From assembly GCA_038062745.1 (NCBI GenBank), contig JBBTWO010000007.1:1-55991 (forward strand): a stretch of DNA of 55,991 nt, in the 5' to 3' direction. Below the pieces are notes generated by a model. The model ran no database searches and was not told the DNA's origin. It saw only the letters and a program-made list of their open reading frames with translations. The stretch is from Patescibacteria group bacterium (GTDB taxonomy: Bacteria > Patescibacteriota > Microgenomatia > UBA8517). The position numbers were made by a program, and so were the translations under genes. Below, in pieces: positions 7,362-39,335 of this stretch (position 1 is its first letter; each line of letters opens with the position of its first letter).

Positions 7362-8081
7362 TTAATTTTTTGTTTGTATAGCCACACTTGCTTCCTCTGC
7401 CTGCTTTTTGGCAGGAGGTTTAGGGTTGTAAACATCGAAATATAATTCAATTAGTTGCTGGTTGGTTAGCTGTTTCAAGCGCAACCCCAACCTTCTTGCT
7501 TGCCGGGTTAAATGGTCACGTCTGGGGATTAAGATTAACTTTGCCTTTTTCAAAACATAGCTTTTAGCAAACGGAAGTGGCTTTTCAGAATTAGTTTTAA
7601 TGAAGGTTGCAAAAGATTTGGCAACCCCCAACTCAAGTGGGGAAAAAGGAATAATGACAAAGAATCTTTTGCCTAAAACATTTTTCTTTTTAACAGTTTC
7701 GGTAATAAACTTTTTGTATGCTTTGGCAACGCCAACAAGTTTTGGGTTTTGCAATTTGGTGAATGACTCATCCAGATATTTTAAATAGCTGGTGATGTCT
7801 TTCCTTTGCGACTTAATTAATATTTGAGCCGAGAAGGTAAGTGAGTTAATAAGTGCTGCGTAAGCGGCAACCACCGCCTCCTGCTCCTTTTCTGACAACA
7901 AACCAAAATTAAGGGAGGTGGATTCTAATACTAAACATGCCCCACCATCCTTAAAAAGCGCAATATCGTCGATAATGTCGGCGATTGGCAGTTGTTTTTG
8001 GCTTGTTGATTGAATAGGCAAGTCGGGAACAGAAATAATCGGCACCCGCAAGTTTTTGATTTTTATATTTTTAGTATCCAT
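7362..8081 (-). CDS. Hypothetical T4SS-associated soluble protein (possible VirB4 N-domain-like accessory)
   Basis: 239-aa ORF, 6 nt upstream of virB4 in the same operon. The segment DDIALFKDGGACLVLESTSLNFGLLSEKEQEAVVAAYAALINSL resembles the 'sample/early' region seen in VirB4-family N-termini. No TM helix. Confidence 0.5.
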   Translation of the reverse strand: MDTKNIKIKNLRVPIISVPDLPIQSTSQKQLPIADIIDDIALFKDGGACLVLESTSLNFGLLSEKEQEAVVAAYAALINSLTFSAQILIKSQRKDITSYLKYLDESFTKLQNPKLVGVAKAYKKFITETVKKKNVLGKRFFVIIPFSPLELGVAKSFATFIKTNSEKPLPFAKSYVLKKAKLILIPRRDHLTRQARRLGLRLKQLTNQQLIELYFDVYNPKPPAKKQAEEASVAIQTKN

Positions 8082-8089: not shown

Positions 8090-9118
8090 TTAATTAGTTA
8101 AACTATTTTTAGCCCGGATGGCAATAGGTTGAATTATTTCTCCTCTGGTCTCAAAGGTGAGTGGGTCAAATTCGAAACCGTCTTTTTCTGTTGTTAATTC
8201 ATATTTACCGGTAAGAAGTGGAGTAACAATCATAAAGTGACCTGCTTTGTTAGATTTTAAGGCCCTTACTGGTCTACCTAAATCATCTTTAATCTCCAAA
8301 ATTGCCCCCTCAATTATTTTTCCAGAGCTATCCATTACTTGGCCAACTATCAAATTAGGATTTTCTGCAGGGGATGGAGGAGCAGCATCAGACGAAAACC
8401 GAGCTTGTATTGGGTTGGCTGAGAGCTGGTTAGTGGATGGGTTGCTTGATGGAGCTGGAACGCCACTTGTAGAAAAAACATTGGCTGAAGGGTTAATTAT
8501 TTGTTTGCTTTGATTGTTTTCTGCTTCAACAATAAATTGGGGTCTGGCACTGGTTGGGGCAATTGCTACTGCTCCAACTTGAGGAATTGTAACCTGTGGT
8601 CGAGTAGTGTCTTGTAGAATTGGAATTTGTTGGTTTGGTTGAGTGGTTGCAACTGGCATTGGTGTTGCTACAAAAAGCGTTCCAAGTTTGTTTAAAAAAT
8701 TATTTTCTTGTTCTTCCAAATTGGAAAGAAATGGCAGTTTTGATCCATTTGAAGAAGCAGTTGAACCGCCACTTGGTGAGCCTGCATTTCCGGTCAACGT
8801 AGATTCTGACATATAAAAGGCTGGGGCTGCAGGATATGGTTGCCAATTGTACATGGTTGGTGAATAAATTGAGCGAAAAAAAGCCAGTACCCATCTCTCA
8901 AGGGGTCGCTCTTGAAAAGGTAAGAAAGCCAAGGCTGCTCCGAAGCTCAAAAAAAACATTATCAGTGGCCATTTTAAAACTGGATGAAGGCCTGTTGAAT
9001 AAATAAGCAAAGAAATTAAAGCTCCAGCAGCCACTTGAAAGAATTGTTTCAAGGTCATATCACCAACTAATCGGAATTGATATGAAGATATTTGTTGTGG
9101 TATTGGATGTTGTTCCAT
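8090..9118 (-). CDS. PrgI/VirB3-like membrane protein fused to a C-terminal carboxypeptidase-regulatory-like beta-sandwich
   Basis: The opening MEQHPIPQQISSYQFRLVGDMTLKQFFQVAAGALISLLIY..WPLIMFFLSFGAALAFLPFQERPLERWVLAFFRSIYSP matches the PrgI-family pattern (short N-terminus, two TM helices). A Pro/Ser/Gln-rich linker follows. The C-terminal segment IVGQVMDSSGKIIEGAILEIKDDLGRPVRALKSNKAGHFMIVTPLLTGKYELTTEKDGFEF is CarboxypepD_reg-like. I prefer the ATG at 9118; the track ORF extends to a TTG at 9211. Confidence 0.6.
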   Translation of the reverse strand: MEQHPIPQQISSYQFRLVGDMTLKQFFQVAAGALISLLIYSTGLHPVLKWPLIMFFLSFGAALAFLPFQERPLERWVLAFFRSIYSPTMYNWQPYPAAPAFYMSESTLTGNAGSPSGGSTASSNGSKLPFLSNLEEQENNFLNKLGTLFVATPMPVATTQPNQQIPILQDTTRPQVTIPQVGAVAIAPTSARPQFIVEAENNQSKQIINPSANVFSTSGVPAPSSNPSTNQLSANPIQARFSSDAAPPSPAENPNLIVGQVMDSSGKIIEGAILEIKDDLGRPVRALKSNKAGHFMIVTPLLTGKYELTTEKDGFEFDPLTFETRGEIIQPIAIRAKNSLTN

Positions 9119-9322
9119 ATAGGCAGTCTCTACAGGTAGTCTCTCTATCAATGTTATATCGTGAAGGCTCTTTAGCAACTTATAATTATTTTCACAAGAA
9201 ATTTTGATCAATATAGAGTATATTTATTTTAGCTACGTTCAAGGAATTTGGTGAAACTCCCAAACTGTGCCGCAACTGTAAAGTCAGAAAACTAGTAGCT
9301 AATTAGAAAGCCCGAGCAGGAA

Positions 9323-10273: not shown

Positions 10274-10300
10274 ACACAATTTGCATAAAAATGGTAAAAT

Positions 10301-12236: not shown

Positions 12237-13808
12237 TTATTTTATTAAGTTTAACATTCTAAGAGCTTGGGCAACTGGATCTCTACCTGTACCGCCAGCA
12301 AGTTTGTCATATTCTTCTCTCTTGGCATAATGGTAAGAAACGGATGCTTGAACTGGTTTAAGCGCTTCACCTAAAGCCGCTCCATAGTTGAATTGTCCAC
12401 CTTTGATTAATGACTGGACTAGTTCTGCTGATTTTGGAATTATAGTGAATATAACCATCGACACCCCTAATAATAAAAAGTTAGCCATAAATCCACCACC
12501 ACCAATTAATGGTGGCCAACCCAAATTCGTACTAGGATTAAGAGTTGTTGTTAATAATCCATCTATGGAAAGAAAATTTGCCATAGCGGTGTCTAAAAAG
12601 ATTATTGTAAGAAGTAAAAGCACGCTGGTTGTAACAAATATTGCTAAATTAGAGATATAACTTCTCATCCAGATACCAAAACCAAAATTTGGAACAAGCA
12701 TTCCTAATAAAATATGAAAAGGAGCTGCGATAATTAATAACAAGGTCATTGCATACGCCTTTATAAGCGTAAAAACTACTTTGGCTGCCATAAACAAAAT
12801 CATTATGCATACACCTATTCCAATAAAAACTAAAAGTAAAGAAAAACCAGCTGTTGGAACTGCGAGAGCTAGTCCGAACAATATCATTCCCATCATAAAC
12901 ATAACTGCCATAAAAACAGCTGATCCAAAGATAATCAAGAAGCCCCAAGATGTTAAAAAGTTAAATGCAATTGTGGTATTTCCCAGAAACTCAGCCGCAG
13001 GTATACTAATAACTCCATACACTACATACATTAAATCGATTAAAAGTCCTGCAATTGCATATGAAAAAGTGATTAGAATTAGCGCTGAAATTACTTTAAC
13101 AAGTGAAGATTGAACAGTAATGGCTATTTGAGGGGAAATTTTCATTCGGAACATAATCATAAACGACATCGCAATTATTACTATAATCATCAGAGAGTAA
13201 CTAATGTTTCTTGTAACAATCCACAGACTTCTGACTGGGGATAGAGCTCCAAAGCCAAATCCTGTTTGTGCTTTTACTTCAGTAATTATGTGAAAGTTGG
13301 CCAGCTTTTCAACAACACCTCCTGTAAATGATAGGTCTTTTCTTGTTGTTAATGCTGCCCATAAAGTTGTAGGTTGGTTTGACATACCATCAGCTTGTAA
13401 TTCTTTAACTGAATCAACCAACTGACTCATTCTTTGAGCTATTGGGGGGATACATGGCGCAATCTGAACCATACTTTTCAAATCTAGCGTTGCAGCATTA
13501 AGCAGATCTTTAATGCTAATATTGCTTTTCATCAAACAAGCAGCTGGTTCTGAACCGACAGTTTGATTAATGAAAAATGAAGGAACACTCCAGATAACCC
13601 AATTTACTTGTGCTGCTGTGTATCTTTCACCAAACATTTCAGTGACAGGGGTCGCGGGATCAAATGTCTTTACATACCAATCATTAAAATTTGGATCATA
13701 CCAGTGGGTTTGCGCTTTCACTTCAGACTGAAAAAGAACTGAAATAGTAGAAAATAAAACTAAAAAAACAAAAAAAGATGTAAGAAGTTTTTTGAAAAGA
13801 TTAGGCAT
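12237..13808 (-). CDS. Polytopic membrane protein, VirB6/TrbL/PrgH-like candidate
   Basis: 523 aa. It has a signal peptide (FVFLVLFSTISVLFQSEVKA/QT), a ~170-aa extracytoplasmic segment, then at least 6-7 TM helices. It is the last gene of the pilin-containing operon. The assignment rests on topology and context only. Confidence 0.45.
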   Translation of the reverse strand: MPNLFKKLLTSFFVFLVLFSTISVLFQSEVKAQTHWYDPNFNDWYVKTFDPATPVTEMFGERYTAAQVNWVIWSVPSFFINQTVGSEPAACLMKSNISIKDLLNAATLDLKSMVQIAPCIPPIAQRMSQLVDSVKELQADGMSNQPTTLWAALTTRKDLSFTGGVVEKLANFHIITEVKAQTGFGFGALSPVRSLWIVTRNISYSLMIIVIIAMSFMIMFRMKISPQIAITVQSSLVKVISALILITFSYAIAGLLIDLMYVVYGVISIPAAEFLGNTTIAFNFLTSWGFLIIFGSAVFMAVMFMMGMILFGLALAVPTAGFSLLLVFIGIGVCIMILFMAAKVVFTLIKAYAMTLLLIIAAPFHILLGMLVPNFGFGIWMRSYISNLAIFVTTSVLLLLTIIFLDTAMANFLSIDGLLTTTLNPSTNLGWPPLIGGGGFMANFLLLGVSMVIFTIIPKSAELVQSLIKGGQFNYGAALGEALKPVQASVSYHYAKREEYDKLAGGTGRDPVAQALRMLNLIK

Positions 13809-13833: not shown

Positions 13834-16365
13834 TTATTTAGTACAAACACTATTTATTCCAGCCAGCCATTTTTGAGCCATTGAGTCATATCCATTTGCC
13901 GTTGGGTGTGCTCCGTCTGACATTAATTCAATACCTGTCATTGGGACTAATTTTACATAACTGCTGAACTCAGAATCGTTGGCAATGTCTGCTAGTCCTT
14001 GATTATATTGGTCAACTGCTGCTTGATAAGTAGTGTAATTGATGGTTGCAAGCAAAATTTTAGCGTTTGGTGCTGCTGCGTGTGCTGAGGTAATGATTTG
14101 CCGCATATTTTGTAAATTTTGTTCAACACCAATGAAGGTGAGTTTGTTTGTTCCTATATCCATTAAAACAATGTTTGGCTGAACAGTTTTTACAAATCCC
14201 GTAACGCGGGTCAAGAAAAAGTCTGTTCCTTGAGCTCCATAGCCTGCGTGATCATCGTCTGTGGCTGGGGGGTCATATTTTTGGGTGCTGCTGCCAACAA
14301 GATTAAACTTATAGCTCGCTGAGGTAAGTGCAGTGTATAGGAATTGTCGATAGCCGGGGTATGTGTCGGCATTGTCGTTAAAAGTTGTTCCAACGGTTAT
14401 AGAGTCTCCCAGTGGCATAATGTTTAATTCTTCAGAACAAGATGTTATTCCTGGTTCTGGAGTTTTGTTTTGGTAGGTTGACGGCAAAGTAGTGATGCTT
14501 CCCGGTTCACCAGACGCTTTCTCGGCACTCATTATTGTTAATTCTGATGGGGCTGTTTGTTTGCCGTTTGCTGAATGTTGACCAATGTTTGGATTTTCAT
14601 CTGCGCTGTCGCCAAACATGGTCAAAATAAATTCTCCAGCCGTATCTTCAACTGATGACAAAGGAATATTTTGGAACAATTTAGCATTAATAGTTTGAAT
14701 ATTGAATATTTGCCTAAATGCTTGGACTAAATCCAATCCAAAAATGTCAGGAATTATACTTGGATCTCCAAATCTCCAAGCAGTAAGGTCGTCTTGATAT
14801 TTTTGTGGATCGTTTTTATATTCATCACTATTCATATCTGGAGGAGAAGGATCAAATTTTGATAAATTCTGGCTTGTGTTGCCAAAATAACCTTCGCCTT
14901 CAATCTTGTAGTCGTGTACCTCTTTACCAACTGTTTCAGGGCTTGTTGCTAAAGTTCCTCTGGCCTCAGAATTTTGCATATCCCAAGGTAGCAGTTTTCT
15001 TATTGGTCCTGAAAAATTAATAACACGATCAATTTGTTCAATTGAAGCGTCAATTAACGGCTCAGCAACTTGAGGAACACCTGTTAAGTAGTAAGACAGA
15101 TATTCATTTACTTTTTGTTCGTCGGTTAAATTACCTGTTTGGGTATTTCCGAGTATGCCTAAATTTGCATCCTTTAGATCGGCAGTTAAGTCAAAGCTCG
15201 AACTTCGGTAGCAGGTTACCCCTAATCCATTTGGATCTTTATCACAAATAGTATGATCATATTGTTGACCTGCAGCATTGGTAACTTTTAGTCCGTCGTA
15301 TTTACCGTTATCTCCATATGGGTCAAAGGCTTCTGTTCCCACAGGTTGTAATTGTGGACCACAAGAATAGGTAATGTATTTTTGATAATCAGGTGCCTCT
15401 CTGTCCAGTGCCTTTGGTATTGACTGAGGAATTAATGGATCACAGGCATTTGCAGGATATGGTCTTAAGGGATGAAATTCAGGATCTGCTGTTTGATCAC
15501 AAGCAATGGTGTCGGGAAGAAAATCTGTTAATGGTCTTTGATTGGGAAGCACTTCTCCTCCCGGCTCGGTAAAGCCCATTTCTCCCTCACAGGTGGTGCT
15601 GGTAATTTGAGCATGATCCCACCAATCTTTACCAATACGTGGATCAATGAAACTTCCTGTATCTCGTATTGCTACTTTTACAGATCCTCCTTGAACATTT
15701 CCCAAAACAAATCCACACGGAAGGGCAAGAAGTGTTGTTCTTCCGTTTGCTTCATTCTCATTGTAAGCAGCCAAAAGTTCGTCACTAACATTAAAATCTA
15801 ATAGATGTATAGCATAACCAACTGCAATACTGTCTTGGGTTCCGTAATGAAGTGTTACGTCGGATTCTGTAGCGTATAACACTGTTACTTGGTGATTTTG
15901 ATCGTCAATTGTATAACCCGATTGTGGAACTTTGACCTCTTCACCATCTCCTGCTTGCAAAGCAACCAAAACAGTTCCCCAATTGCCGGTGTAGTCGGCT
16001 TTAATGTCGTCACCTAAGGCTCCGCCGCTCCATTGTTTGACTGTGTAAAGATTAGTAAATTGGGGATTTGGATTGCTGACTGATCCAATTAGAGTGTTGA
16101 GTTGGGGGGCTAAATTGTCAGTTGGCCCGCCAACATTTATTTTTACTAAATCCTCTGGTTCTGGAGGAAGACCAATTGTATTAGAATTTGGATATGGTGG
16201 ATTAACCTCTATATATCCATCAGGCATTCTTTTTCTGATATTTACATCAAAATCATCTTTTGCCTCTGGAGTTCTTGCAATTAAAGAAGAAGGCATGAAA
16301 ATTAAAACTAACAAGGCAAAGACTAAACCAATTTGAATTAATTTTTTAAAATTTAATTTTTTCAT
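13834..16365 (-). CDS. Large secreted protein with C-terminal SGNH/GDSL hydrolase domain
   Basis: It has an N-terminal signal/TM (IQIGLVFALLVLIFMPSSLIA). The C-terminal ~200 aa carry a GDSL block (IMPLGDSITVG), a block-III-like MDIGTN, and a DxxH block (SDGAHPTANGY). I prefer the start at ATG 16365, which shares ATGA with the upstream stop; the track start is 16380. Confidence 0.7.
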   Translation of the reverse strand: MKKLNFKKLIQIGLVFALLVLIFMPSSLIARTPEAKDDFDVNIRKRMPDGYIEVNPPYPNSNTIGLPPEPEDLVKINVGGPTDNLAPQLNTLIGSVSNPNPQFTNLYTVKQWSGGALGDDIKADYTGNWGTVLVALQAGDGEEVKVPQSGYTIDDQNHQVTVLYATESDVTLHYGTQDSIAVGYAIHLLDFNVSDELLAAYNENEANGRTTLLALPCGFVLGNVQGGSVKVAIRDTGSFIDPRIGKDWWDHAQITSTTCEGEMGFTEPGGEVLPNQRPLTDFLPDTIACDQTADPEFHPLRPYPANACDPLIPQSIPKALDREAPDYQKYITYSCGPQLQPVGTEAFDPYGDNGKYDGLKVTNAAGQQYDHTICDKDPNGLGVTCYRSSSFDLTADLKDANLGILGNTQTGNLTDEQKVNEYLSYYLTGVPQVAEPLIDASIEQIDRVINFSGPIRKLLPWDMQNSEARGTLATSPETVGKEVHDYKIEGEGYFGNTSQNLSKFDPSPPDMNSDEYKNDPQKYQDDLTAWRFGDPSIIPDIFGLDLVQAFRQIFNIQTINAKLFQNIPLSSVEDTAGEFILTMFGDSADENPNIGQHSANGKQTAPSELTIMSAEKASGEPGSITTLPSTYQNKTPEPGITSCSEELNIMPLGDSITVGTTFNDNADTYPGYRQFLYTALTSASYKFNLVGSSTQKYDPPATDDDHAGYGAQGTDFFLTRVTGFVKTVQPNIVLMDIGTNKLTFIGVEQNLQNMRQIITSAHAAAPNAKILLATINYTTYQAAVDQYNQGLADIANDSEFSSYVKLVPMTGIELMSDGAHPTANGYDSMAQKWLAGINSVCTK

Positions 16366-18764
16366 GGTGCTTGATAGCATACTTCAGGTTTGTCGGTGTC
16401 TGGATTGTCACCTAACCTTTTTGGCCAATTTGTTCCATCACAATATCCTGACCCTAAACAAACAATGTCTGCATAGCTCATGTTGTTACAATCTCCTCCT
16501 CTGCATTGTGATGATGTAAAGTGTCCTTTTGCAAAATTCTTGGTACTGATGTCGGGTGTATCCCCTCCATAATATCCACAACTGGCTACTCTTACTTCCC
16601 TTTGGGTGGTTATTTTGCCTCCTGGATATTCTCCTATTTTTGATAGTAACAACCTAGCGGCTATTTCCATTGTGTCTACCGGCCAACAGCGATTTAATTT
16701 ACCATCAATTTTTACACACTGATTTACTTCTGTCTCTGCTTTTTGGGTCTCGTCAACTGTTATGTTGTAGCCATTGTCGCTCATGGCCATGAGTCCTAAG
16801 TAAACACCAAATTTATAGCTGCAAGTATAAGGTTCACTTTCTGTATAAAAAGGCAAGGCTTCAATTCTATATATCCAATCAAGAACACCCTTCGGAACAC
16901 TGGCTGCTGCTCCGCCATTGTCGATTGAGGCTTGAAGGATGTCGTTTTGGAATTCTGTGCTTTCTGGATCTGGTGCACTACAGACTCCGGCGGGGGAGGG
17001 GGCAGGTGAGGTTCCTGGTGGAATTCCAGATGAGGTACCAGCGTTTTTTGGTCTCAAGGCTTTTTGTAAATCTTCAAGCCAATATTTTTTAAGAGATCCA
17101 ATATGGGGAACATAGAAAGATGGAGAGTTGCCATCTTCAGTTTTTAATTCTACTGGTGAATCACTCTCAGTGTTTTGAACTGCAGAAGCACTGTAAGCAA
17201 CTGAGGAGGGGATTTCATCAAATTCTTTTGTATTTATAGATGGCATAAATCGTTTGAATAAGGATTGAGATCCATTGACCATAACATCATAAATATATTC
17301 AACTAAAGGATTTTTAATATAGACTGCAGCTTTTCCTTCTGTCTGACGCTCAACTTGGGGGATAGAACCACAAGTAAATTGTCCTCCACCTTTATCTATT
17401 GGATTGGCGTGACATTGAGGATCGGTAGCGCGTTGCGAACAACAGTTCTCGGGATAGAGAGTGTCTACTCCATCGGCCAAGCAGTTCGTAGGTTTAGGGC
17501 AGGCATCATACTCGTATTTTTGGGTAAACAGAACCCGGCCAACTATTTTTGGCCCAACCAAATCATCACCTTCGTTGTTTTTTACTTCTGGAACCACACA
17601 AGCCATCTGGTCATATGGTGGGTCAGTTTGTGCTTGATATGTTTCTGCTGCAGGAACAACTTGAGCCACTACTAAAGAGGAATTGTTTGTTTCTTTATTT
17701 ACAACTGTAGTTGCATCGTCTACTCCTTGATGTTTTTCAATTTTGGTTGTAACCACACCAGGGTTGGTCAGGGATGCATTTTGATTTGACGGTGGAGCAT
17801 TATTTTTCAGGGAACTAGGTTGAGGATTAAAAATTGCCTGAGCCATAGCCGACAACGCTGCAAGTAATCTTAAGTGTGGAAACCACAGCCTGGATTCTCC
17901 TTCACCGCCAACCTCAACACCTCCCGGGCCACATCCAGCCACATTGGCATCACAAAACCAGATTGCTTGATTATTTACAACACACGCCGAACCACTACAA
18001 GGCACTGTTCCGTTATACATAACCGCTCCGGTATATAATTTTGCTTGAGTTATATCGTCTGTGTATTCTTTTCCTCCGATTAGAAATCCTTGTGCTTTTC
18101 TACTGCCTTCCGCTGGGTCTGGAAAGTCAGACATGGTTGGATTACATCTTCGATAATTGTTGCCCCAGCAAGCTAGGTATTTTCCATCGGTTGAAAACTG
18201 GCAGCCAATTTCTGCTTCGTCAGACGATCCACACAGAGGAGCCCGAACTCTATAAACACTACAAGCATCATCTTGGCTTTTGCAGTAAAGTGTATATGAA
18301 TTTCCGGGAGCGAGGCCGGCAACTGGATTGGTACATTGGGATCCACCAACAGATATTCCACTAGATGGATCTGGAAAAATATAGTCAGTTTTAACACTAT
18401 AGCCAGCGGGAGCGCTGCAGCCTGCTGGAACATAAGCGCAAGTTTGAGTTGGATCTGGTATGGGGCAACTGGTAGTTGGAATAATACAAGCTCGCCCCTC
18501 AAACTTATTGTTTGAATTAATATTAAGACATTGTTGTTGATCTGTTATCGTAGAACAATCTCCCGGCTGAGTAGTGCCTTCACATTCTGGTGGGGCATCA
18601 GGTTTTTGTACACACCCTTGGCCTGCTTGCCACCAACACCAGTAACAGCCATTAGAAGAATTACAGTCGTGTTGGGCAGTGTTAACCGCAAAGACAGTTT
18701 TTGGATTATTAAACAACAAAAAAAATCCAAGTAAAAAAAATGCAGACAGCAACATTTTATTCAT
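16362..18764 (-). CDS. Cys-rich secreted giant protein (800 aa), C-terminal region weakly lytic-transglycosylase-like
   Basis: Signal peptide is MNKMLLSAFFLLGFFLLFNNPKTVFA. I count ~39 Cys by hand, clustered in the first ~280 aa and the last ~350 aa. The C-terminal segment ..DWIYRIEALPFY..GVYLGLMAMSDNGY.. loosely recalls the SLT E...GLMQ...Y motifs (low confidence). Confidence 0.65.
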   Translation of the reverse strand: MNKMLLSAFFLLGFFLLFNNPKTVFAVNTAQHDCNSSNGCYWCWWQAGQGCVQKPDAPPECEGTTQPGDCSTITDQQQCLNINSNNKFEGRACIIPTTSCPIPDPTQTCAYVPAGCSAPAGYSVKTDYIFPDPSSGISVGGSQCTNPVAGLAPGNSYTLYCKSQDDACSVYRVRAPLCGSSDEAEIGCQFSTDGKYLACWGNNYRRCNPTMSDFPDPAEGSRKAQGFLIGGKEYTDDITQAKLYTGAVMYNGTVPCSGSACVVNNQAIWFCDANVAGCGPGGVEVGGEGESRLWFPHLRLLAALSAMAQAIFNPQPSSLKNNAPPSNQNASLTNPGVVTTKIEKHQGVDDATTVVNKETNNSSLVVAQVVPAAETYQAQTDPPYDQMACVVPEVKNNEGDDLVGPKIVGRVLFTQKYEYDACPKPTNCLADGVDTLYPENCCSQRATDPQCHANPIDKGGGQFTCGSIPQVERQTEGKAAVYIKNPLVEYIYDVMVNGSQSLFKRFMPSINTKEFDEIPSSVAYSASAVQNTESDSPVELKTEDGNSPSFYVPHIGSLKKYWLEDLQKALRPKNAGTSSGIPPGTSPAPSPAGVCSAPDPESTEFQNDILQASIDNGGAAASVPKGVLDWIYRIEALPFYTESEPYTCSYKFGVYLGLMAMSDNGYNITVDETQKAETEVNQCVKIDGKLNRCWPVDTMEIAARLLLSKIGEYPGGKITTQREVRVASCGYYGGDTPDISTKNFAKGHFTSSQCRGGDCNNMSYADIVCLGSGYCDGTNWPKRLGDNPDTDKPEVCYQAP

Positions 18765-18790: not shown

Positions 18791-19114
18791 TTAAGGTTGA
18801 ACGACTGTGAAGTTGAGGATTCCTGTAACACCAGTAAAATTCCCAATTAACTGGAGAATAAAATATGAAGCTACAATGAAAACCAGACCCAAAATTGCAT
18901 AAGTAATTGTTTTTTGTGCTCCTTGTGCTTTTCCTGCATCCGTGCCAGCAGTCAAAAAATTAAAACCCCCAATCAAAAGCATAATAAACAAAGCAAGTCC
19001 GGCAAAACCAACGGCAAGACCAACCACATTTGAAAAGAGTGTTTCAAAACCACCAATGGTTGCCACCCCAGTATCGTCAAAGGTAGGTATTTCTGCTGCA
19101 TGAATTTCGAACAT
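18791..19114 (-). CDS. VirB2/TrbC-like two-helix pilin paralog 8
   Basis: 107 aa with two TM helices flanking the loop NFLTAGTDAGKAQGAQKTITYAILGLV. It shares this architecture with the seven genes upstream. Confidence 0.6.
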   Translation of the reverse strand: MFEIHAAEIPTFDDTGVATIGGFETLFSNVVGLAVGFAGLALFIMLLIGGFNFLTAGTDAGKAQGAQKTITYAILGLVFIVASYFILQLIGNFTGVTGILNFTVVQP

Positions 19115-19161
19115 AGCAATAGTTTAAATTAACTTAAGGCAATAGACAACAGGAGACGAGT

Positions 19162-19530
19162 TCAAATGAAAGCTGTTGGAAGTTCAAGTGTGAATATGTC
19201 AACACCAAAGAATGCTTTAATAAGTTGAGCAATTGCCCAAGCTGAGAAGACGATAACTAAACCAACTAAAGCTGCTGTAATTTGATTTCTCGCAGATTCT
19301 GTTTGTCCTTTATCTCCTCCTGAGAGTATCCATTTAATACCACCAATAACTAACATAAAAAAGAAAACTATAGCCGCAATAACTAAAGCAAAGGTAATAA
19401 GCCCAGAAATTAAACTCGCTATTGTTAGATTTTCTGGTGAGAGAGTTTCAAAGTCATCTGTGCTAGGAACCAATTTTATATCGGTAGAAGTTTCACCTGC
19501 TGCTAATACTGTGTGAATAAGTCCGAACAT
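19162..19530 (-). CDS. VirB2/TrbC-like two-helix pilin paralog 7
   Basis: 122 aa with two TM helices and the loop WILSGGDKGQTESARNQITAALVGLVIV. Confidence 0.6.
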   Translation of the reverse strand: MFGLIHTVLAAGETSTDIKLVPSTDDFETLSPENLTIASLISGLITFALVIAAIVFFFMLVIGGIKWILSGGDKGQTESARNQITAALVGLVIVFSAWAIAQLIKAFFGVDIFTLELPTAFI

Positions 19531-19538
19531 ATGAATAA

Positions 19539-19976
19539 TTATTGTATTTTAAGAGGGCCGATGTCAATAGTCAAAATGTTGATTCCAAAGAAAGTCTCAA
19601 CAAGATTGATAATTGCAAAAGTGGAAAACAAAAGAATAATTCCAATTAATGCATTTGTAATTCTTCCACGGGCTTGCTCAACAGCCCCTTTGTCACCTCC
19701 AGAAAATATCCATTGAATTGCCCCAAGCACTACCATGAAAAAAAAGCCAATTGCACCAACAACAAAGATCCAACCAACTAAAGGAGGAAAAATGGAAGCC
19801 AAAAAACTTTCCCCACTTTTTGAACTCAGATTTTCTGGCAAAAGAGGATTTATAATTTTTTCACTTGGGTTAGTATTTTTATCTGGAGTGCAATTCTTTG
19901 CACAATCCAAGTACTGCTGGGAATTCCCAGACAAAGATTCACATTGTTGACAGCTTAAGGCGAGTAAATTAGTCAT
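19539..19976 (-). CDS. VirB2/TrbC-like two-helix pilin paralog 6 with 4-Cys N-terminal extension
   Basis: 145 aa. The N-terminus reads MTNLLALSCQQCESLSGNSQQYLDCAKNCTPD. Two TM helices follow, with the loop WIFSGGDKGAVEQARGRITNALIGIILL. Confidence 0.6.
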   Translation of the reverse strand: MTNLLALSCQQCESLSGNSQQYLDCAKNCTPDKNTNPSEKIINPLLPENLSSKSGESFLASIFPPLVGWIFVVGAIGFFFMVVLGAIQWIFSGGDKGAVEQARGRITNALIGIILLFSTFAIINLVETFFGINILTIDIGPLKIQ

Positions 19977-19977
19977 A

Positions 19978-20361
19978 CTATTTCATTCCTAGTAAATTAA
20001 TCATAAATGTGATGTTTAGGACATCTTCAATTCCAAGAATGGATCCAACTAAATCTATTAAGAATATTGCTGCTATTACAACAACCAATCCTATAATTCC
20101 AGTAGTCATTTTTTGTCTTGCTTCTGTTAGTTTTCCCTTATCCCCACCCGAAAATATTATTGCAATTGCACCAAGAAAGAATTGAATGACAAACCAAATA
20201 ATAGCAATCACAGTCATGACCCCTATGGTTGTTGATAAAACTTTAGTAAAAACACTCCCTGATGTTGAAGCCTCTTCTCCCTCAAGGCCAAGTGGTCCAA
20301 AACCTCTAAAACCACCCTCAGGGGCTAGTGGAATACTGGTTTGTGCAAGTAACTTTCTCAT
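19978..20361 (-). CDS. VirB2/TrbC-like two-helix pilin paralog 5
   Basis: 127 aa, with the loop IIFSGGDKGKLTEARQKMTTGIIGLVVV between two TM helices. A 4-nt overlap links it to the upstream gene. Confidence 0.6.
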   Translation of the reverse strand: MRKLLAQTSIPLAPEGGFRGFGPLGLEGEEASTSGSVFTKVLSTTIGVMTVIAIIWFVIQFFLGAIAIIFSGGDKGKLTEARQKMTTGIIGLVVVIAAIFLIDLVGSILGIEDVLNITFMINLLGMK

Positions 20362-20720
20362 GGTGTTAGTGTTGGAATTGCTGGATTAAGTATGAAGTCC
20401 CAACTTCCGAATATCAACCAGCCAAAGATCCCTGCCAATACATATGCCCCAGCCGCAAAAGCAAGACCCAAAGCGGTTTGCCAAATTTTTGCCCAGGCAC
20501 CCTCTATTTTTTTAGAATCGTCTCCTGCCGACAAGAAAGCATAACCTGCAAGGACAAAATTAAACAGAGAATAAATAACTGCCCCAACAATGAGGAGTTT
20601 TAATCCTAAATTCAGAAGATTTCCTATCCCAGCTCCAGTGTTGTTGGGGTCAAATTTTGACAGGGAAGCTGGTGGTGTTATTTCTCCAAATATATCTGTG
20701 TCTACTGCTAATTTATTCAT
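20358..20720 (-). CDS. VirB2/TrbC-like two-helix pilin paralog 4
   Basis: The loop is FLSAGDDSKKIEGAWAKIWQTALGLAF. I prefer the internal start MNKLAVD (ATG at 20720), which matches the MNKLAQ/MTNKLAQ N-termini of neighbouring paralogs. The track ORF (to 20756) would overlap the upstream gene by 32 nt. Confidence 0.6.
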   Translation of the reverse strand: MNKLAVDTDIFGEITPPASLSKFDPNNTGAGIGNLLNLGLKLLIVGAVIYSLFNFVLAGYAFLSAGDDSKKIEGAWAKIWQTALGLAFAAGAYVLAGIFGWLIFGSWDFILNPAIPTLTP

Positions 20721-20724
20721 ATTT

Positions 20725-21048
20725 TTAAAAACCAGGCATAGTAATAAAGGCAACACCTGTAATTATTTCTATTAATCTTATTATCCAGTATGCTGCAAAT
20801 ATTATAACAAATCCAATAACGGCTGAGGAAGCAGCTTGCTGTGCTTTTTGAGCGTCTTGCTGGTTTCCACTGCCTGCTCCTTGGATTATTTTAAAACCTG
20901 CAAAAACAAGCATAAACAAAATTATAATTCCAGCAACTACAAAGGAAATGTTAAGACCCAGAGAAATTAAATCGCCAAGGCTATTTTGGCCAGTGCTAAA
21001 AGGAGTATTAAAAGTGGTGCCAATTGGAACTTGTGCTAATTTATTCAT
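20725..21048 (-). CDS. VirB2/TrbC-like two-helix pilin paralog 3
   Basis: 107 aa with N-terminus MNKLAQVPIG and the loop IIQGAGSGNQQDAQKAQQAASSAVIGFVII between two TM helices. Confidence 0.6.
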   Translation of the reverse strand: MNKLAQVPIGTTFNTPFSTGQNSLGDLISLGLNISFVVAGIIILFMLVFAGFKIIQGAGSGNQQDAQKAQQAASSAVIGFVIIFAAYWIIRLIEIITGVAFITMPGF

Positions 21049-21051
21049 GCT

Positions 21052-21384
21052 TTAGAAAATACTAACTACACTACTTAGACCAAGTAGTTTTGCAATTATT
21101 TGAACTATAAAAAAAGCAAAAAAGACAACAATGAAACCAATAAAAGCATTTGTAAGTATATGTTGGCCTTCCTGAACTTTTTTTGGATCCCCAGCAGAGG
21201 TCATGAGTTTAAAACCACCCATTAATAGGTAAACAAGTAATGCAAAACCTGCAATAGCAAAAAGATATGGGAGCAATTCTGTAATAAGTGTTCCAATTTT
21301 TGTATTTGGGTCATACTTATAGTCAGACCCCAATCCCTTCTCTGTTATTGTTTGAAAATTTATTTGTGCTAATTTGTTTGTCAT
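21052..21384 (-). CDS. VirB2/TrbC-like two-helix pilin paralog 2
   Basis: 110 aa with N-terminus MTNKLAQINF and the loop LMTSAGDPKKVQEGQHILTNAFIGFIVV between two TM helices. Confidence 0.6.
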   Translation of the reverse strand: MTNKLAQINFQTITEKGLGSDYKYDPNTKIGTLITELLPYLFAIAGFALLVYLLMGGFKLMTSAGDPKKVQEGQHILTNAFIGFIVVFFAFFIVQIIAKLLGLSSVVSIF

Positions 21385-22043
21385 ACTCCAAATCCTGGTA
21401 TACCTAGTATATCAACACCAGTTACTTTTAGTACAAACACTGAAAATATTAGTAAAATAAGTCCGCCAATTGCAGATGTTAGCAACTCTCTTCCTGCTTG
21501 AAGTTTTTTAGGATCACCTTGGGATGTTGTGATCATAAAGCCTGCAACTAAAACTAGTATAAAAGCAATTCCTCCGCCAATACCAATAGCCCAACCCAAA
21601 ATCCAACCAGCAAACGTATTGGGGTCGTTTATTGGAATACAGCCAATTGCAGTATTAATCCCGTTACTTATATTTCCACCACAACCAACACTATCGTCAA
21701 CAGGTGCCTCTTCGTCGCCACCGCCGCTTGACTGGATAACACAACAAGTATACTCGCCTTCACACAGGCCGGCAGAGTCAATTCTTTCATTTCTTTGACA
21801 CACTGTCTCACACGTGCCCTGTGGATTTTCTGGGCAGGGAGCCCCGACTATTACAGGACCAGATACACAACAGGTTGCGCCTCTACAACCACCTCTGTTG
21901 TCAGGATGTTCAGTATCTTTGCAGCCACCCGTTCTACAAGTACCTTCAGGGACACTAGGACACGGAATAGCGTAAATGTTTTTTGGTAACAGTAGGTTAA
22001 AAATAAAAAGGAAACCCAGCAAAAAAACAAAAAATCTTTTCAT
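21381..22043 (-). CDS. Pilin-like paralog 1 with signal peptide and duplicated six-Cys ectodomain module
   Basis: 220 aa. Signal peptide is MKRFFVFLLGFLFIFNLLLPKNIYA. Two tandem modules follow: IPCPSVPEGTCRTGGCKDTEHPDNRGGCRGATCCV and APCPENPQGTCETVCQRNERIDSAGLCEGEYTCCV. The C-terminal two-helix module carries the loop MITTSQGDPKKLQAGRELLTSAIGGLILL. It is the first gene of the operon. Confidence 0.65.
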   Translation of the reverse strand: MKRFFVFLLGFLFIFNLLLPKNIYAIPCPSVPEGTCRTGGCKDTEHPDNRGGCRGATCCVSGPVIVGAPCPENPQGTCETVCQRNERIDSAGLCEGEYTCCVIQSSGGGDEEAPVDDSVGCGGNISNGINTAIGCIPINDPNTFAGWILGWAIGIGGGIAFILVLVAGFMITTSQGDPKKLQAGRELLTSAIGGLILLIFSVFVLKVTGVDILGIPGFGV

Positions 22044-22087: not shown

Positions 22088-23800
22088 ATGAATAATATGA
22101 TCCAAAAGCTTGCCAATCTTGGTGTCCATGTGTTTTTTGTAGTTTGTTTTACAATTTTAATCTTCAATCCAAATTTATCTGCCTTTAATATCTTTGCTTC
22201 TCATTGTGGTGCTGATCTTGACTGCCAAATACAAGAAATTCAAACTGAAATTAATGCCTTAAAACCTGCTCACGAAAACAACAAAAAAGAATTATCCTCC
22301 CTAAACTCTCAACTAACAGATTTAAAGAAAAAAATTACTTCTTTGTCCTCTCAGCTAACCCAAGTTGAAAAAGATATTTTGAAAAGAGAAGAGGACTTGG
22401 CATATGCAAATGAAATATTTAATCAAAAAGCCAAAAATCACTATCAATTTATTAGAACTTATGATCCCCTGGCTCCCTTTTTAAATTCTCAAGCTTCTGG
22501 AGCTTTCCGCGAAATTGTTTTTCGCCAGAAAGCCAGCGATGAAGACCGCAAAACAATGGAAAAATATGGTCAGGATTTGTTGAGCCTAAAAACAGACAAA
22601 GAAAAACTTGAAAAAAGCAAAGCCAGCTTGGCCGCTTTGCAAAAAGATATCGACGCCAAAGCAAAGTTTTTGGGAGCCGAAGTAAACAAAGTGGAAAGCT
22701 ACATAGCAACTTTGTCTGCAAAACAAAATGAATTGTCAGCTCTTAAAGCTGGTGGTTTTGCAACATCTGTTGGTGATACTCCAGGAACTGCTGAACCGTG
22801 TTCTGGTCCTCCTGGATCCTCAAATTATTGTGACCCAGGCTTCAGACCTGCTTTTGCTGGATTTTCTTTTGGAGCACCTCACAGAACCGGCATGAGTCAG
22901 TATGGGGCGTATGGCAGAAGTAAGTCTGGTCAATCTGCAGAAACTATACTGGCAGCTTACTATCAAGGAGCAGAATTAAATAAGAGTTTCGCTTCCCCCG
23001 CCAATATAACGGTTGTTGGAATTGGAACAGTCTCTTTTGAAGACAATTACATGTTGGGTATTTATGAAGTTCCGGAAAGTTGGGGGGACAGTGGTGGTTT
23101 TGAAGCTTTGAAAGCTCAAGCTGTTGCAGCTAGAAGTTATGCTCTTTACTACACCAACAATGGAACAAAAAGCATTTGTACCACTGAAGCCTGCCAAGTG
23201 TATAAGTCACAACTAAAGAGTGGAAAGTGGGCTGAAGCGGTTCGTGCCACCCGTGGTTGGGTAATGACCAAAGGAGGGAGTGCTGCAGGAACATATTTTG
23301 CCTCAACTTCCGGTGGTTACACTATTTCCCAATGGGGTTGGAATGGCATCAAAGATGCAGCGGGGGATTGGCCAGCAACGGCATATGAAAAGACAGCCGG
23401 TTCTCCGTGGTTTTATAAGGGTTGGTATAAATCTCGTGGTGGGGCAACTTGCGGCAGAAATAATCCTTGGTTAACCTCGGGAGATTTAGCAGATATTCTA
23501 AACGCTTGGAAAGTATTAACTAGTGGGGGTGGAGATGTTTCAAGAATTAGTCCATTGGATACTGGGTGTTGGGGAGGCAATCCATATTCCAAGGATGAAT
23601 TGAAAGCCATTGGAGGCTTTGATTCAGTATCTGCAGTTTCAGTTATTTATTCAAACAGTGGTTCTACTCAATCTGTTTCCTTCTCAACCAACAAAGGTAG
23701 TGCCAATATGACTGGAGAGGATCTCAAAAAAGCTTTTAACCTTCGGGCGCCTGGATATATTGGTATTAAGTCTTCACTTTTCAACATTGAGAAACTTTAA
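22088..23800 (+). CDS. SpoIID/LytB-domain protein with N-terminal TM anchor and coiled coil
   Basis: 570 aa. It has a TM helix (VHVFFVVCFTILIF) and a coiled-coil region (LSSLNSQLTDLKKKITSLSSQLTQVEKDILKREEDL...). The SpoIID signature is EALKAQAVAARSYALYY...CTTEACQVYK. It is divergent from the pilin operon. Confidence 0.75.
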   Translation: MNNMIQKLANLGVHVFFVVCFTILIFNPNLSAFNIFASHCGADLDCQIQEIQTEINALKPAHENNKKELSSLNSQLTDLKKKITSLSSQLTQVEKDILKREEDLAYANEIFNQKAKNHYQFIRTYDPLAPFLNSQASGAFREIVFRQKASDEDRKTMEKYGQDLLSLKTDKEKLEKSKASLAALQKDIDAKAKFLGAEVNKVESYIATLSAKQNELSALKAGGFATSVGDTPGTAEPCSGPPGSSNYCDPGFRPAFAGFSFGAPHRTGMSQYGAYGRSKSGQSAETILAAYYQGAELNKSFASPANITVVGIGTVSFEDNYMLGIYEVPESWGDSGGFEALKAQAVAARSYALYYTNNGTKSICTTEACQVYKSQLKSGKWAEAVRATRGWVMTKGGSAAGTYFASTSGGYTISQWGWNGIKDAAGDWPATAYEKTAGSPWFYKGWYKSRGGATCGRNNPWLTSGDLADILNAWKVLTSGGGDVSRISPLDTGCWGGNPYSKDELKAIGGFDSVSAVSVIYSNSGSTQSVSFSTNKGSANMTGEDLKKAFNLRAPGYIGIKSSLFNIEKL

Positions 23801-39249: not shown

Positions 39250-39253
39250 TGGG

Positions 39254-39335
39254 CGGAGGATACAGGAGTCGAACCTGTTAGGGATTGCTCCCTTTAGTTT
39301 TCGAAACTAATGCCTTACCGTCCGGCACATCCTCC
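39254..39335 (-). tRNA. tRNA-Ser (anticodon CGA)
   Basis: Hand fold of the minus strand gives acceptor GGAGGAT/ATCCTCC and anticodon arm TTAGT-TTCGAAA-ACTAA. It has a long variable arm (AGGGAGCAATCCCTA), T-arm ACAGG-TTCGACT-CCTGT and discriminator G. Confidence 0.8.

Follow-up and report, generated by a model that had tools for sequence, protein, structure and literature searches.

The DNA window analysed here (the whole stretch, 55,991 nt) carries a row of eight small pilin-like genes, and the question it raises is why one T4SS locus should hold so many. The earlier note on this DNA had described eight consecutive minus-strand genes at 18791-22043, tightly packed with 0-47-nt gaps or 4-nt overlaps, and had called them VirB2/TrbC-like pilins. 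All eight ORFs were located as described, and the intergenic distances measured from p1 to p8 were -4, 3, 4, -4, 1, 8 and 47 nt. The genes, with their scores against PF18895 (T4SS_pilin; curated cut-off 26.6 bits), are as follows.

21381..22043, minus strand: p1, 220 aa; 25.9 bits, just below the cut-off
21052..21384, minus strand: p2, 110 aa; N-terminus MTNKLAQ; 47 bits
20725..21048, minus strand: p3, 107 aa; N-terminus MNKLAQ; 32.6 bits; its orthogroup stands at position 3
20358..20720, minus strand: p4, 120 aa from the ATG (MNKLAV); the most divergent paralog
19978..20361, minus strand: p5, 127 aa; N-terminus MRKLLAQ; 21.1 bits, just below the cut-off
19539..19976, minus strand: p6, 145 aa; N-terminus MTNLLAL; 31.8 bits
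19162..19530, minus strand: p7, 122 aa; 41.5 bits; the most conserved paralog
18791..19114, minus strand: p8, 107 aa; 34 bits; last gene of the array

Eight membrane hairpins and their family

Every array protein is a two-helix membrane hairpin. Hydropathy analysis gave two hydrophobic helices joined by a loop of 15-25 residues with 2-4 K/R, in agreement with the two TM helices and polar loop noted before, and AlphaFold models p2 as a hairpin of two helices (H29-62 and H67-101; mean pLDDT 78.9). The loop motifs of all eight proteins and the N-termini quoted earlier were found in the translations. The longest ORF of p4 would begin at a GTG at 20756.

Pairwise BLASTP connected all eight proteins, most pairs having E values between 1e-5 and 1e-30; p4 was the weakest link (E 1.5e-6 to p8, 6e-5 to p5). 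The paralogs are 22-42% identical, the closest pair being p6/p7 (41.7%), and no recent duplicates were seen among them. Judged from these alignments, the paralogy is more than chance. A family HMM recovered exactly these eight proteins and nothing else within the 56-kb window, and PF18895 exceeded its cut-off for five of the eight (p2, p3, p6, p7 and p8); p4 had no Pfam match and was picked up solely by the family-specific profile. Membership of a T4SS-pilin family therefore holds. The NCBIfam profile NF045849 (Mbov_0395 pilin-like family) scored 40.3 bits on p2 against a cut-off of 40, which p2 alone reached; six other members gave E values from 7.7e-7 to 0.016. The Pfam scan also returned weak, spurious matches to unrelated membrane families.

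The label VirB2/TrbC-like stands for the PF18895 family and the T4SS setting, but not for the classical sequence family. The HMM comparison that had been proposed was significant for PF18895, whereas PF04956 (TrbC/VirB2) gave zero matches to the eight proteins at E<=1. A search of the PDB with the family profile retrieved no solved pilin, and hhalign against genuine VirB2/TrwL gave a probability of 0.15%; these results give no support to membership of the classical TrbC/VirB2 sequence family. Every Foldseek match to known folds had E>2, including CedA1 (8dfu) among the top ones, so that the hairpin fold was not discriminated. The array proteins share with VirB2/TrbC/TrwL, F TraA and archaeal CedA1/TedC a helical hairpin of about 70-100 residues with a short basic loop, and with classical conjugative pilins the linkage to VirB3, VirB4 and VirB6-like genes, but have no detectable sequence relationship to them and no significant fold match.

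The surrounding locus and published arrays

The genes around the array are listed below.

22088..23800, plus strand: SpoIID/LytB-domain protein with N-terminal anchor and coiled coil, divergent from the array
16362..18764, minus strand: 800-aa secreted protein with 39 Cys, directly downstream of p8 in a variable region
13834..16380, minus strand: protein of 848 aa, GDSL lipase/acylhydrolase domain at the C-terminus
12237..13808, minus strand: polytopic membrane protein of 523 aa, about 9 hydrophobic segments by hydropathy
8090..9211, minus strand: PrgI-family (VirB3-like) protein (PF12666, 28.1 bits)
7362..8081, minus strand: TrsD-like protein, weak NCBIfam matches (NF041427 TrsD, 8.7e-5; NF045975, 6e-6)
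5505..7355, minus strand: VirB4-like ATPase of conjugal transfer, CD1110 family (405.6 bits with NF045971, whose cut-off is 325; PF19044)
2794..5508, minus strand: 904-aa membrane protein with four hydrophobic segments and a C-terminal CHAP peptidoglycan hydrolase domain (PF05257, 26.6 bits)
326-2153: dnaA and dnaN, near the T4SS locus

This is a chromosomal, origin-proximal, monoderm-type (MPF-FATA-like) T4SS of a Woesebacteria/Microgenomates-like Patescibacterium. The divergent SpoIID gene upstream of p1 and the 9-TM gene downstream of the array were each present in 48 of 49 related loci, the PrgI gene in 36, the GDSL-domain protein in 33 and an orthologue of the 39-Cys protein in only 14; VirB4 orthologues of about 73% identity lie downstream of related arrays. 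The 9-TM protein, with no match in Pfam or NCBIfam, may be VirB6-like by its position and topology, the TrsD-like protein resembles the N-terminal part of VirB4, and the CHAP protein has a putative VirB1-like role.

It could be argued that the eight are generic small membrane proteins (holin-like, or stress peptides) that merely lie near a T4SS. In its favour are the simple hairpin fold, which Foldseek does not discriminate, the weak spurious Pfam matches and the adjoining peptidoglycan hydrolase genes. This reading, to which we give hardly any credence, is largely refuted by the significant PF18895 and NF045849 matches, by the conserved synteny with the 9-TM, PrgI, TrsD and VirB4 genes, and by S. 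epibionticum, where both the array and the T4SS are essential. The earlier note had named relatives with VirB4 but lacking pilins as evidence against the pilin assignment; of 2,417 assemblies with VirB4, 1,948 also have VirB2-like pilins, and the array is kept beside the T4SS in relatives.

The novelty that had been implied for the array fails, since such arrays are published. Patescibacteria carry arrays of 2-11 pilin genes, about 25% identical and common in Microgenomatia (Quinonero-Coronel et al. 2025, PMC12102498); the pilin series SEML1_0006-0019 of the Saccharibacterium S. epibionticum ML1 is essential (Wang et al. 2023, PMC10633639; PMC12857230); and an array is described in TM7x (bioRxiv 10.1101/258137). 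The array here is an instance of this kind: tandem PF18895 two-helix proteins, with paralogs about as divergent, inside a chromosomal MPF-FATA-like locus near dnaA/dnaN in which no relaxase is detected; arrays of this kind are reported as especially common in Microgenomatia. It differs from the Saccharibacteria arrays, which have 4-6 members with a signal peptide reported on all, in having eight members with a full signal peptide on p1 only. Among the published descriptions consulted, we found none of fixed 1:1 orthogroups and order, of a dedicated p7 promoter, of an LLAQ leader or of a modular p1 Cys ectodomain. Proteins of the Mbov_0395 family are, as far as is known, single-copy in Mycoplasma ICEs that conjugate. 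They resemble the array proteins in being small and two-helix and in matching them significantly in sequence, and their gene neighbours a VirB4 that falls into the same broad clade of monoderms. The system here, by contrast, is chromosomal, non-mobile and without a relaxase, and it has eight differentiated copies.

A conserved set of eight types

The survey of copy number proposed earlier was carried out with the family HMM on full related loci of at least 15 kb (n=53), and exactly eight members were found in 42 of them (range 6-9). This fixed number is shown for the Woesebacteria-like group only; Saccharibacteria have 4-6. The p7 protein had 355 relatives among the species-representative genomes scanned; in the 79 loci closest by similarity to p7, the order p1 to p8 by best match was intact in 48, with 1:1 orthologues. 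Orthologues are 40-75% identical, compared with 22-42% between paralogs, and every orthogroup has conserved motifs of its own, such as GFxGFGPLG in the N-tail of p5. Mean identity was highest in the p7 orthogroup (0.62), whose core is nearly invariant, and was 0.56 in that of p4. The eight types are ancient paralogs, kept as 1:1 orthologues in the same order across many species, and are probably non-interchangeable, differentiated subunit types in dozens of species.

These data bear on the idea that the paralogs are interchangeable major pilins serving antigenic variation or adaptation to host strains. The VirB2 clusters of Bartonella and Anaplasma phagocytophilum, which likewise have several tandem pilin genes per T4SS locus, are read as lineage-specific amplifications for antigenic variation. 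In the present array, number and order are fixed, and the copies are ancient and 1:1 orthologous. The low identity between paralogs would fit such variation, as would differences between species in the N-tails, in the ectodomain of p1 and in the genes immediately past p8, and this interpretation is offered in PMC12102498. We consider it improbable: copy number and colinear orthogroups are maintained, orthologues resemble each other more than paralogs do, motifs are particular to each position, one member has a dedicated conserved promoter, and variation of this sort is limited to the p1 ectodomain. There is already an indication that all duplications predate the divergence of these species. 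Of the three functions proposed before, differentiated subunits (minor, tip or heteropolymeric) are thus favoured, and antigenic or host-range variation is disfavoured because the types are 1:1 orthologous and colinear across species.

The dedicated promoter is that of p7, which has its own conserved near-consensus element.

19538..19567, minus strand: sigma-70-type promoter of p7, TTGACA-18-AATAAT, 11 of 12 consensus matches

It is carried by the last codons of p6 and its stop codon, which the -10 overlaps, and the ATG of p7 follows 7 nt further on. Promoter calling relied on the E. coli-type consensus. Of 48 orthologous loci, 43 reached a score of at least 11, as did 3.6% of background windows; the form TTGACA-18-(A/G)ATAAT was found in 43-46 of the 48, against 3.6-7%. 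An RpoD-type sigma factor is encoded in the window. The geometry is kept even where p6 ends 27-41 nt upstream. Since the ATG lies only 6-13 nt past the -10 across related loci, the p7 mRNA should be leaderless or nearly so. Its own promoter and highest conservation suggest that p7 is likely the major subunit.

N-termini, topology and a proposed assembly

The short leader that the earlier note saw in several members is real and conserved family-wide, far beyond the source genome. The segment M-x-x-L-L-A|Q often opens p2-p7, here mostly as 6-10 residues, while p8 types are mostly without LLAQ. It is not a start-codon artefact, because in-frame stops lie 1-9 codons upstream; its Leu codons differ synonymously. 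The sole array member with a Sec-type signal peptide is p1 (aa 1-25). In alignments the 'MxxLLA|Q' N-terminus falls at the cleavage region of the full signal peptides that about 10 of 120 homologs have, ending at '..AFA|Q', and the junction '..A|Q' resembles '..PAAA|Q' of VirB2/TrwL. The leader may be a vestigial signal-peptide c-region that either still marks a processing site exposing an N-terminal Gln or belongs to the mature N-terminus. Classical systems have one major pilin (plus VirB5) with a long Sec signal peptide, as opposed to the eight types with mostly short leaders here.

The hairpins would insert with both termini outside and the K/R loop in the cytoplasm, the topology of VirB2 and classical conjugative pilins. 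An outside N-terminus is indicated because the signal peptide and 14-Cys ectodomain of p1 precede TM1, because one p4 orthologue has a signal peptide and a Cys-rich insert, and because of the full signal peptides among homologs; those on all saccharibacterial members (bioRxiv 10.1101/258137) count likewise. A cytoplasmic loop is suggested because the loops are net positive and several N-tails acidic. Against this topology, the N-tails of p2 and p5 have four K/R each, which is unfavourable for Sec-independent translocation.

The ectodomain of p1 is modular and Cys-rich.

21735..21968, minus strand: p1 ectodomain, two tandem 6-Cys modules with spacing C-x7-C-x3/4-C-x11-C-x4/5-CC

The two modules (aa 26-103) follow the signal peptide; a conserved Cys-pair segment, 'TAIGCIP', comes next, and then the two-helix core. 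The internal repeat scored 90, whereas shuffled sequences averaged 32.5 (z=8.6), and the number of Cys minus 2 is a multiple of 6 in 98 of 120 homologs. In the model, module 2 has pLDDT of about 90; its best fold matches are beta-defensin-type domains, though with an E of only 0.067. The p1 orthologues range from 103 to 391 aa with the core conserved and the ectodomain variable. A lineage-specific 4-Cys insert is present in p6 (about aa 8-30) and missing from its orthologues.

With slightly better than even confidence, we propose that the eight genes encode a fixed set of differentiated PF18895 subunits of a chromosomal T4SS, with the leader and topology given above. The ATPase module (VirB4/TrsD), acting with PrgI and the 9-TM protein, would extract the hairpins from the membrane and build from them a single heteromeric structure outside the cell. 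This pilus or short stalk would pass through the wall, helped by the SpoIID and CHAP hydrolases, and so reach the host cell. In it p7 would be the bulk subunit, and the ectodomain-bearing p1 and other low-copy types would serve as initiation, tip, adaptor or adhesin subunits; the heteromer, this division and any processing of the leader are deduced from gene organisation and conservation. The major-plus-minor sets of T2SS and type IV pili (GspG-K; PilA with FimU-PilVWXE) are analogous in organisation only, being fixed-order paralogous subunits of which one is abundant and highly conserved and one has an extra domain; they are an unrelated family, made with a class III signal peptide and consisting of one N-terminal helix and a globular head, and they use another assembly ATPase. 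Counting against the proposal, no similarity to structurally solved pilins appears significant by sequence or fold, and to our knowledge a filament has been seen for no Patescibacterial T4SS.

The first of these points would also suit a system without an extended pilus, in which the hairpins are membrane-embedded or wall-spanning channel parts (short pseudopilus, piston, stalk or hetero-oligomeric ring), cell-associated like the T2SS pseudopilus. Monoderm T4SSs are not known to form pili (PMC12102498; PMC12857230), the related family of Mycoplasma ICEs is conserved as a part of the transfer machinery, and a fixed, stoichiometric-looking set fits a defined complex as well as a fibre. We hold this to be possible but rather unlikely; the strong promoter and extreme conservation of p7 point to the main building block of a polymer, display at the surface is suggested by the Cys-rich ectodomains of p1 and, in some cases, of p4 and p6, and metatranscriptome expression is high, T4SS pilins ranking with the most strongly expressed genes that lack a known function (PMC10936435). 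None of these is decisive.

No terminator was found between the inferred transcription units of the array and no conserved hairpin in the spacer before p8. A weaker promoter-like element precedes p8.

19121..19149, minus strand: promoter-like element of p8, TTGTCT-17-TAAACT, 6 nt upstream of the ATG

Of 76 loci, 38 have the pattern TTG[CT][CT][CT]-N16-18-TA[AGT][AG][AC]T upstream of p8; its background frequency is 0.006 per 90 nt.

The eight-gene array and its protein family

The earlier note had described eight consecutive minus-strand genes for small two-helix proteins, and all eight ORFs are present in the window. They are numbered p1 to p8 in transcription order.

Genes of the pilin array
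p1, 21381-22043, minus strand, 220 aa
p2, 21052-21384, minus strand, 110 aa
p3, 20725-21048, minus strand, 107 aa
p4, 20358-20720, minus strand, 120 aa (the ATG of 'MNKLAV' taken as the sensible start)
p5, 19978-20361, minus strand, 127 aa
p6, 19539-19976, minus strand, 145 aa
p7, 19162-19530, minus strand, 122 aa
p8, 18791-19114, minus strand, 107 aa

The genes are tightly packed, with intergenic distances from p1 to p8 of -4, 3, 4, -4, 1, 8 and 47 nt, and the loop motifs and N-termini that had been quoted for them were all found in the translations. Hydropathy analysis gave two hydrophobic helices and a polar loop with 2-4 Lys/Arg for all eight members; ahead of helix 1, p1 also has 14 cysteines and an N-terminus that looks like a cleavable signal peptide. 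Helical hairpins were obtained in the AlphaFold models of p2 and p1, the hairpin of p2 being confident. Pairwise BLASTP connected all eight proteins at 22-42% identity, the weakest member being p4, which is linked to p8 at 1.5e-6; this degree of mutual identity indicates that p1-p8 are old paralogs. The longest ORF of p4 starts at a GTG 12 codons before the ATG (20721-20756 in the window, overlapping the end of p3), and the extension would encode the hydrophobic 'MLPLLLCLVFKN'; the open frame may have arisen by chance or may be what is left of a longer signal peptide.

The sole consistent Pfam match across the array was PF18895 (T4SS_pilin). Its curated gathering threshold of 26.6 bits was passed by five of the eight members, p2 (47.0 bits), p7 (41.5), p8 (34.0), p3 (32.6) and p6 (31.8); p1 (25.9) and p5 (21.1) fell narrowly under it, and p4 gave no match. 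An HMM made from family members recovered all eight at E<=1e-3 and no further copy within the 56-kb window. Against the NCBIfam model NF045849, the Mbov_0395 family of pilin-like conjugal transfer proteins from Mycoplasma ICEs, whose cut-off is 40 bits, p2 just passed at 40.3, p7 scored 28.7 and the others 14.9-21.8, p4 being without a match; for the six members besides p2 the E values ranged from 7.7e-7 to 0.016, and as sequence matches these show relatedness, not equivalog membership. A profile search of a collection of 5.8 billion proteins returned at least 2,911 relatives, and all 120 among the matches listed bear a PF18895 annotation, which is precomputed and stands on database homologs of all types. 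The top-scoring database homolog, P0001 (251 aa), reached 158 bits against a typical value of about 110; with roughly double the usual length, it may consist of two fused pilin domains. When p7 was compared by tblastn with 72,556 plasmids, one chance-level match was obtained, so the family is not plasmid-borne within that collection. Family membership of p1-p8 and their linkage to a T4SS are near certain.

The proteins had also been called VirB2/TrbC-like pilins. The T4SS-pilin family and the T4SS context bear out the pilin part of that description; membership in the TrbC/VirB2 family is not supported at the sequence level. None of p1-p8 matched PF04956 (TrbC/VirB2) at E<=1, and no relationship to VirB2/TrbC/TrwL was seen when a 52-sequence family alignment was compared by hhalign with five genuine VirB2/TrbC/TrwL proteins from annotated plasmids (probability 0.15%, E 0.38, for a shallow VirB2 profile). 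The family profile found no solved pilin, such as those of the T-pilus, the F-pilus and pKM101 or CedA1/TedC, among all PDB chain sequences, where only chance matches were seen (E>=0.3). A Foldseek search of the PDB with the p2 model gave nothing significant, with no match below E 2 (best E 2.3); in second place stood CedA1 (8dfu), a conjugative pilin from archaea (TM 0.65, E 2.3), level with hairpins of unrelated function, the T3SS needle and CnrX. Since unrelated hairpins tie with the archaeal conjugative pilin, the hairpin fold is uninformative. That p1-p8 work like VirB2 is plausible from their architecture, inferred topology and gene context.

Conservation of the set in related loci

Scanning of species-representative genomes with a p7-led alignment yielded 355 relatives. 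The best 79 of the 355 loci come overwhelmingly from Ca. Woesebacteria, Microgenomates and Patescibacteria MAGs; they are the closest of the 355, and a fixed set of eight is a statement about this Woesebacteria-like group only. The same array occurs in some TPA records titled 'uncultured Gammaproteobacteria', titles which are probably placeholders.

Exactly eight family members were found in 42 of the 53 related loci of at least 15 kb, to which the count was restricted, with a range of 6-9. When each protein was assigned to its best-matching window paralog, longest ORFs being used for the starts in related loci, the order p1-p2-p3-p4-p5-p6-p7-p8 was observed in 48 of the 79 loci, and most of the exceptions lie on truncated contigs or have lost or duplicated one member. 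Orthologues are 40-75% identical, compared with 22-42% for the paralogs, and conserved motifs are specific to position, such as 'TAIGCIP' in p1 and 'GFxGFGPLG' in p5. The fixed count, the order, the higher identity of orthologues than of paralogs and the separate motifs together indicate that the duplications are older than the divergence of these species and that all types have been kept. Ancient types that are all kept are the signature expected of differentiated, non-redundant subunits. The earlier note had offered a heteropolymer or minor pilins, and antigenic or host-range variation, as explanations of the array; with an orthologous set that is fixed and ordered, the comparative data favour the differentiated subunits of the former. 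The variation model, in which the paralogs would be interchangeable variants, we regard as quite improbable, because a fixed set in a kept order signals differentiation, not amplification.

A second or third p7-like copy was seen at the p6 position in a few of the related loci (L028, L061, L065, L076 and L077), L028 having three. These copies fit p6 and p7 being sister types, which are 41.7% identical in the window, and fit an occasional recent duplication of p7, the presumed major subunit.

Arrays of this kind are already in the literature. The survey PMC12102498 counted 441 arrays, each with 2-11 pilin genes, across 383 assemblies; Microgenomatia and Saccharimonadia are especially rich in them, and paralog identity averages 25% with a maximum of 54%. 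A 2018 preprint (bioRxiv 10.1101/258137) had described arrays encoding 4-6 small proteins that have signal peptides and are 'related to VirB2'. In S. epibionticum the series of pilin genes is essential (Wang et al. 2023, PMC10633639), and T4SS pilins are among the highest-expressed genes of unknown function in Patescibacterial metatranscriptomes (PMC10936435). The window array has the array traits of PMC12102498, i.e. tandem genes, 22-42% identity, dnaA/dnaN nearby and a Patescibacterial host, and its headline is therefore an instance of the published kind. The comparative result narrows the open question, turning 'why so many pilins?' into a testable one of heteromer versus variation.

Leaders, the p1 ectodomain and promoters

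A leader shared by several of the proteins in place of a classical signal peptide had been proposed. The short N-termini are real and recur across species, the motif being found in orthogroups p2-p7; the p1 orthogroup always has a classical signal peptide, and p8 usually lacks the motif. Mis-called starts were rejected as the source of the short leaders, since p2, p3 and p5-p8 are each preceded by an in-frame stop at a distance of 1-9 codons; p4 alone can be extended, by 12 residues from the GTG. The leaders of p2-p8 comprise 6-11 residues and align with the cleavage site of the full signal peptides of homologs. Of the 120 best homologs, which are p7-like, 78 start with a leader of at most 10 residues ending in '..LLA', the residue after this motif being most often Gln (37) or Ala (29), and about 10 have a full Sec-type signal peptide, whose end ('..AFA' before Q or '..VLA' before A) aligns with the short motif. 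A DNA-level translation signal was ruled out: the Leu codons vary synonymously, so the leader is conserved at the protein level. We interpret the motif as the c-region that has been kept from an ancestral signal peptide. VirB2/TrbC proteins carry a long Sec signal peptide, which signal peptidase I removes; here p1 alone has a classical one. VirB2/TrbC pilins polymerise together with phospholipid to form an extracellular pilus, and some of them are cyclised or acetylated. No dedicated signal or prepilin peptidase was recognisable in the window.

The ectodomain of p1 (21735-21968, residues 26-103) is built from a 6-Cys module that occurs twice (z 8.6 for the internal repeat), each time with the spacing C-x7-C-x3/4-C-x11-C-x4/5-CC, which is beta-defensin-like with its CC end. 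In 98 of 120 independently called p1 homologs the number of Cys minus 2 is a multiple of 6, and at least 103 of the 120 have a signal-peptide-like N-terminus; p1 orthologues range from 103 to 391 aa in length around a conserved core. One p4 orthologue from a related locus (L049_4) has gained an insert rich in Cys as well as a signal peptide, and p6 of the window has a private 4-Cys insert. All these Cys-rich decorations lie upstream of helix 1, which argues that the N-termini face outwards, and we therefore infer for p1-p8 the VirB2 topology, N-out/loop-in/C-out.

Foldseek of p1 module 2 (AlphaFold model) placed 6qbk, 6qbl, 2rng and 5ki9 at the top (probability 0.90-1.00, E 0.07-0.4). The big defensin 6qbk matched the confident module at probability 1.0, TM 0.61, rmsd 1.8 Å and E 0.067, and hBD4 was also among the best fold matches. 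No match of p1 to the Pfam defensin families was obtained at E<=1, and the modules are neutral to acidic, not cationic. A beta-defensin-type fold is a lead only; according to PMC11561630, the bacterial defensins reported to date are all cis-defensins.

The most conserved type is p7, whose orthologues average 0.62 in pairwise identity and hardly vary in the core, and ahead of it lies the promoter-like sequence TTGACA-18-AATAAT (19567-19538). Promoters were predicted by an E. coli-type consensus, an RpoD-type sigma factor being encoded in the window. Of the 48 canonical loci, 43 have a site of at least 11/12 in this position, compared with 3.6% of background windows, and no comparable conserved site of at least 11/12 was found ahead of the other paralogs in the 48 loci. 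The final codons of p6 contain the -35, and the -10 overlaps its stop codon; loci in which p6 ends 27-41 nt further upstream keep the site, which indicates more than coding constraint. The Asp codon within the -35 is GAC, though these genes use GAC for only 36% of their Asp residues. With about 6-13 nt between the -10 and the p7 ATG, the mRNA is predicted to be leaderless or nearly so. Upstream of p8, 38 of 76 loci have a weaker conserved element, TTGCTC-17-TAAACT/TAGAAT (background 0.006). Promoter-like sites overall are not enriched in the region (9 found vs 11.9 expected), so it is cross-species conservation that makes the p7 and p8 sites credible. A terminator or attenuator hairpin in the conserved p7-p8 spacer of about 50 nt was rejected (mean z about 0, with no conserved hairpin), and a generic terminator scan was not above shuffles. 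Taken as a whole, the data on p7 suggest that it is the bulk (major) subunit.

Genomic setting and a model of the structure

The window opens with the C-terminal part of dnaA, then dnaN (326-2153), which places the T4SS locus beside the replication origin, as is the case in many Patescibacteria (PMC12102498). On the array strand, the genes downstream encode a secreted protein with 39 Cys, a GDSL-domain protein and a membrane protein of about 9 TM helices (523 aa, 12237-13808), and beyond a two-gene opposite-strand insertion follow PrgI/VirB3-like, TrsD-like, CD1110-family VirB4 and CHAP hydrolase genes; a SpoIID-domain gene is divergent from p1. In the 49 related loci compared, SpoIID lies upstream in 48, the 9-TM protein downstream of the array in 48, PrgI is kept in 36, and VirB4, at about 73% identity, falls inside the 10-kb flank in 20. 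This layout matches that of the Patescibacterial T4SS of PMC12102498, an MPF-FATA-like system close to dnaA in which TrsD accompanies VirB4; the published system is described as having no associated relaxase or coupling protein. Pfam and NCBIfam searches of the window's large ORFs, several of which match nothing, found no relaxase or VirD4/T4CP.

A variable cargo-like region (13834-18764) lies between p8 and the 9-TM gene. Homologs of the 800-aa secreted protein with 39 Cys were found in 14 of the 49 loci and homologs of the 848-aa GDSL lipase-domain protein in 33; both proteins may be host-interaction factors or T4SS substrates. Two plus-strand ORFs of 316 and 644 aa (9323-12235), with no family match, break the minus-strand T4SS block; with homologs in only 4 of the 49 loci, the pair looks like a lineage-specific insertion.

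As an overall explanation, we lean slightly towards p1-p8 being eight differentiated subunits of one heteromeric T4SS structure. The hairpins would be inserted N-out, p1 through Sec and the others probably by N-tail translocation, and the VirB4/TrsD machine would extract and polymerise them into a single heteromeric wall-crossing structure, with p7 as the bulk subunit and p1 and the remaining types as initiator, tip, adaptor or adhesin. The likeness to the major-plus-minor pilin sets of T2SS/T4P would be one of logic, not of ancestry. The eight fixed and ordered types, the p7 promoter and the variable p1 ectodomain predict a defined multi-subunit structure, not a pool of antigenic variants; between a heteromeric pilus and a cell-associated pseudopilus or channel complex the balance is roughly even for that part of the explanation. 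As a full account of the array, a cell-associated complex with no extended pilus is possible though rather unlikely.

Going further within the differentiated-subunit explanation, p1-p8 might jointly be obligate, non-redundant subunits of one heteromeric filament or stalk, with p7 supplied in bulk via a leaderless transcript, p1 distal and disulfide-rich, possibly presenting trans-defensin modules towards the host envelope, and the 'MxxLLA' leader before Q marking a Sec-signal-independent insertion or processing route; this combination is doubtful as a whole. If true, it would be without precedent both as a heteropolymeric pilus of the conjugative type and as a pilus made by a monoderm T4SS. 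Patescibacteria, which live attached to other microbes, make up a very large share of bacterial diversity, and to our knowledge no T4SS other than theirs has been shown to be essential to the cell that carries it. The subunit to tag or purify is p7, and the likely host contact is p1.

Elsewhere in the window, a large serine recombinase gene (36138-37685, plus strand) and the tmRNA gene (37665-38055, minus strand) share 21 nt on the 3' side of the latter, an arrangement which suggests an element integrated at ssrA; smpB follows the tmRNA gene at 38060-38524. The window also contains the following genes.

Defence or addiction-type genes
23797-24413, BrnT-like toxin and CopG-like antitoxin
47923-48540, AbiEii toxin
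27327-28466 and 48571-49749, two AAA_14/DUF4143 ATPases

A tRNA cluster at 39252-41385 comprises one tRNA-Arg and four tRNA-Ser that differ in their anticodons, and the 3' end of a LAGLIDADG-domain ORF (40109-41122) overlaps tRNA-Ser(gga) (41091-41174).
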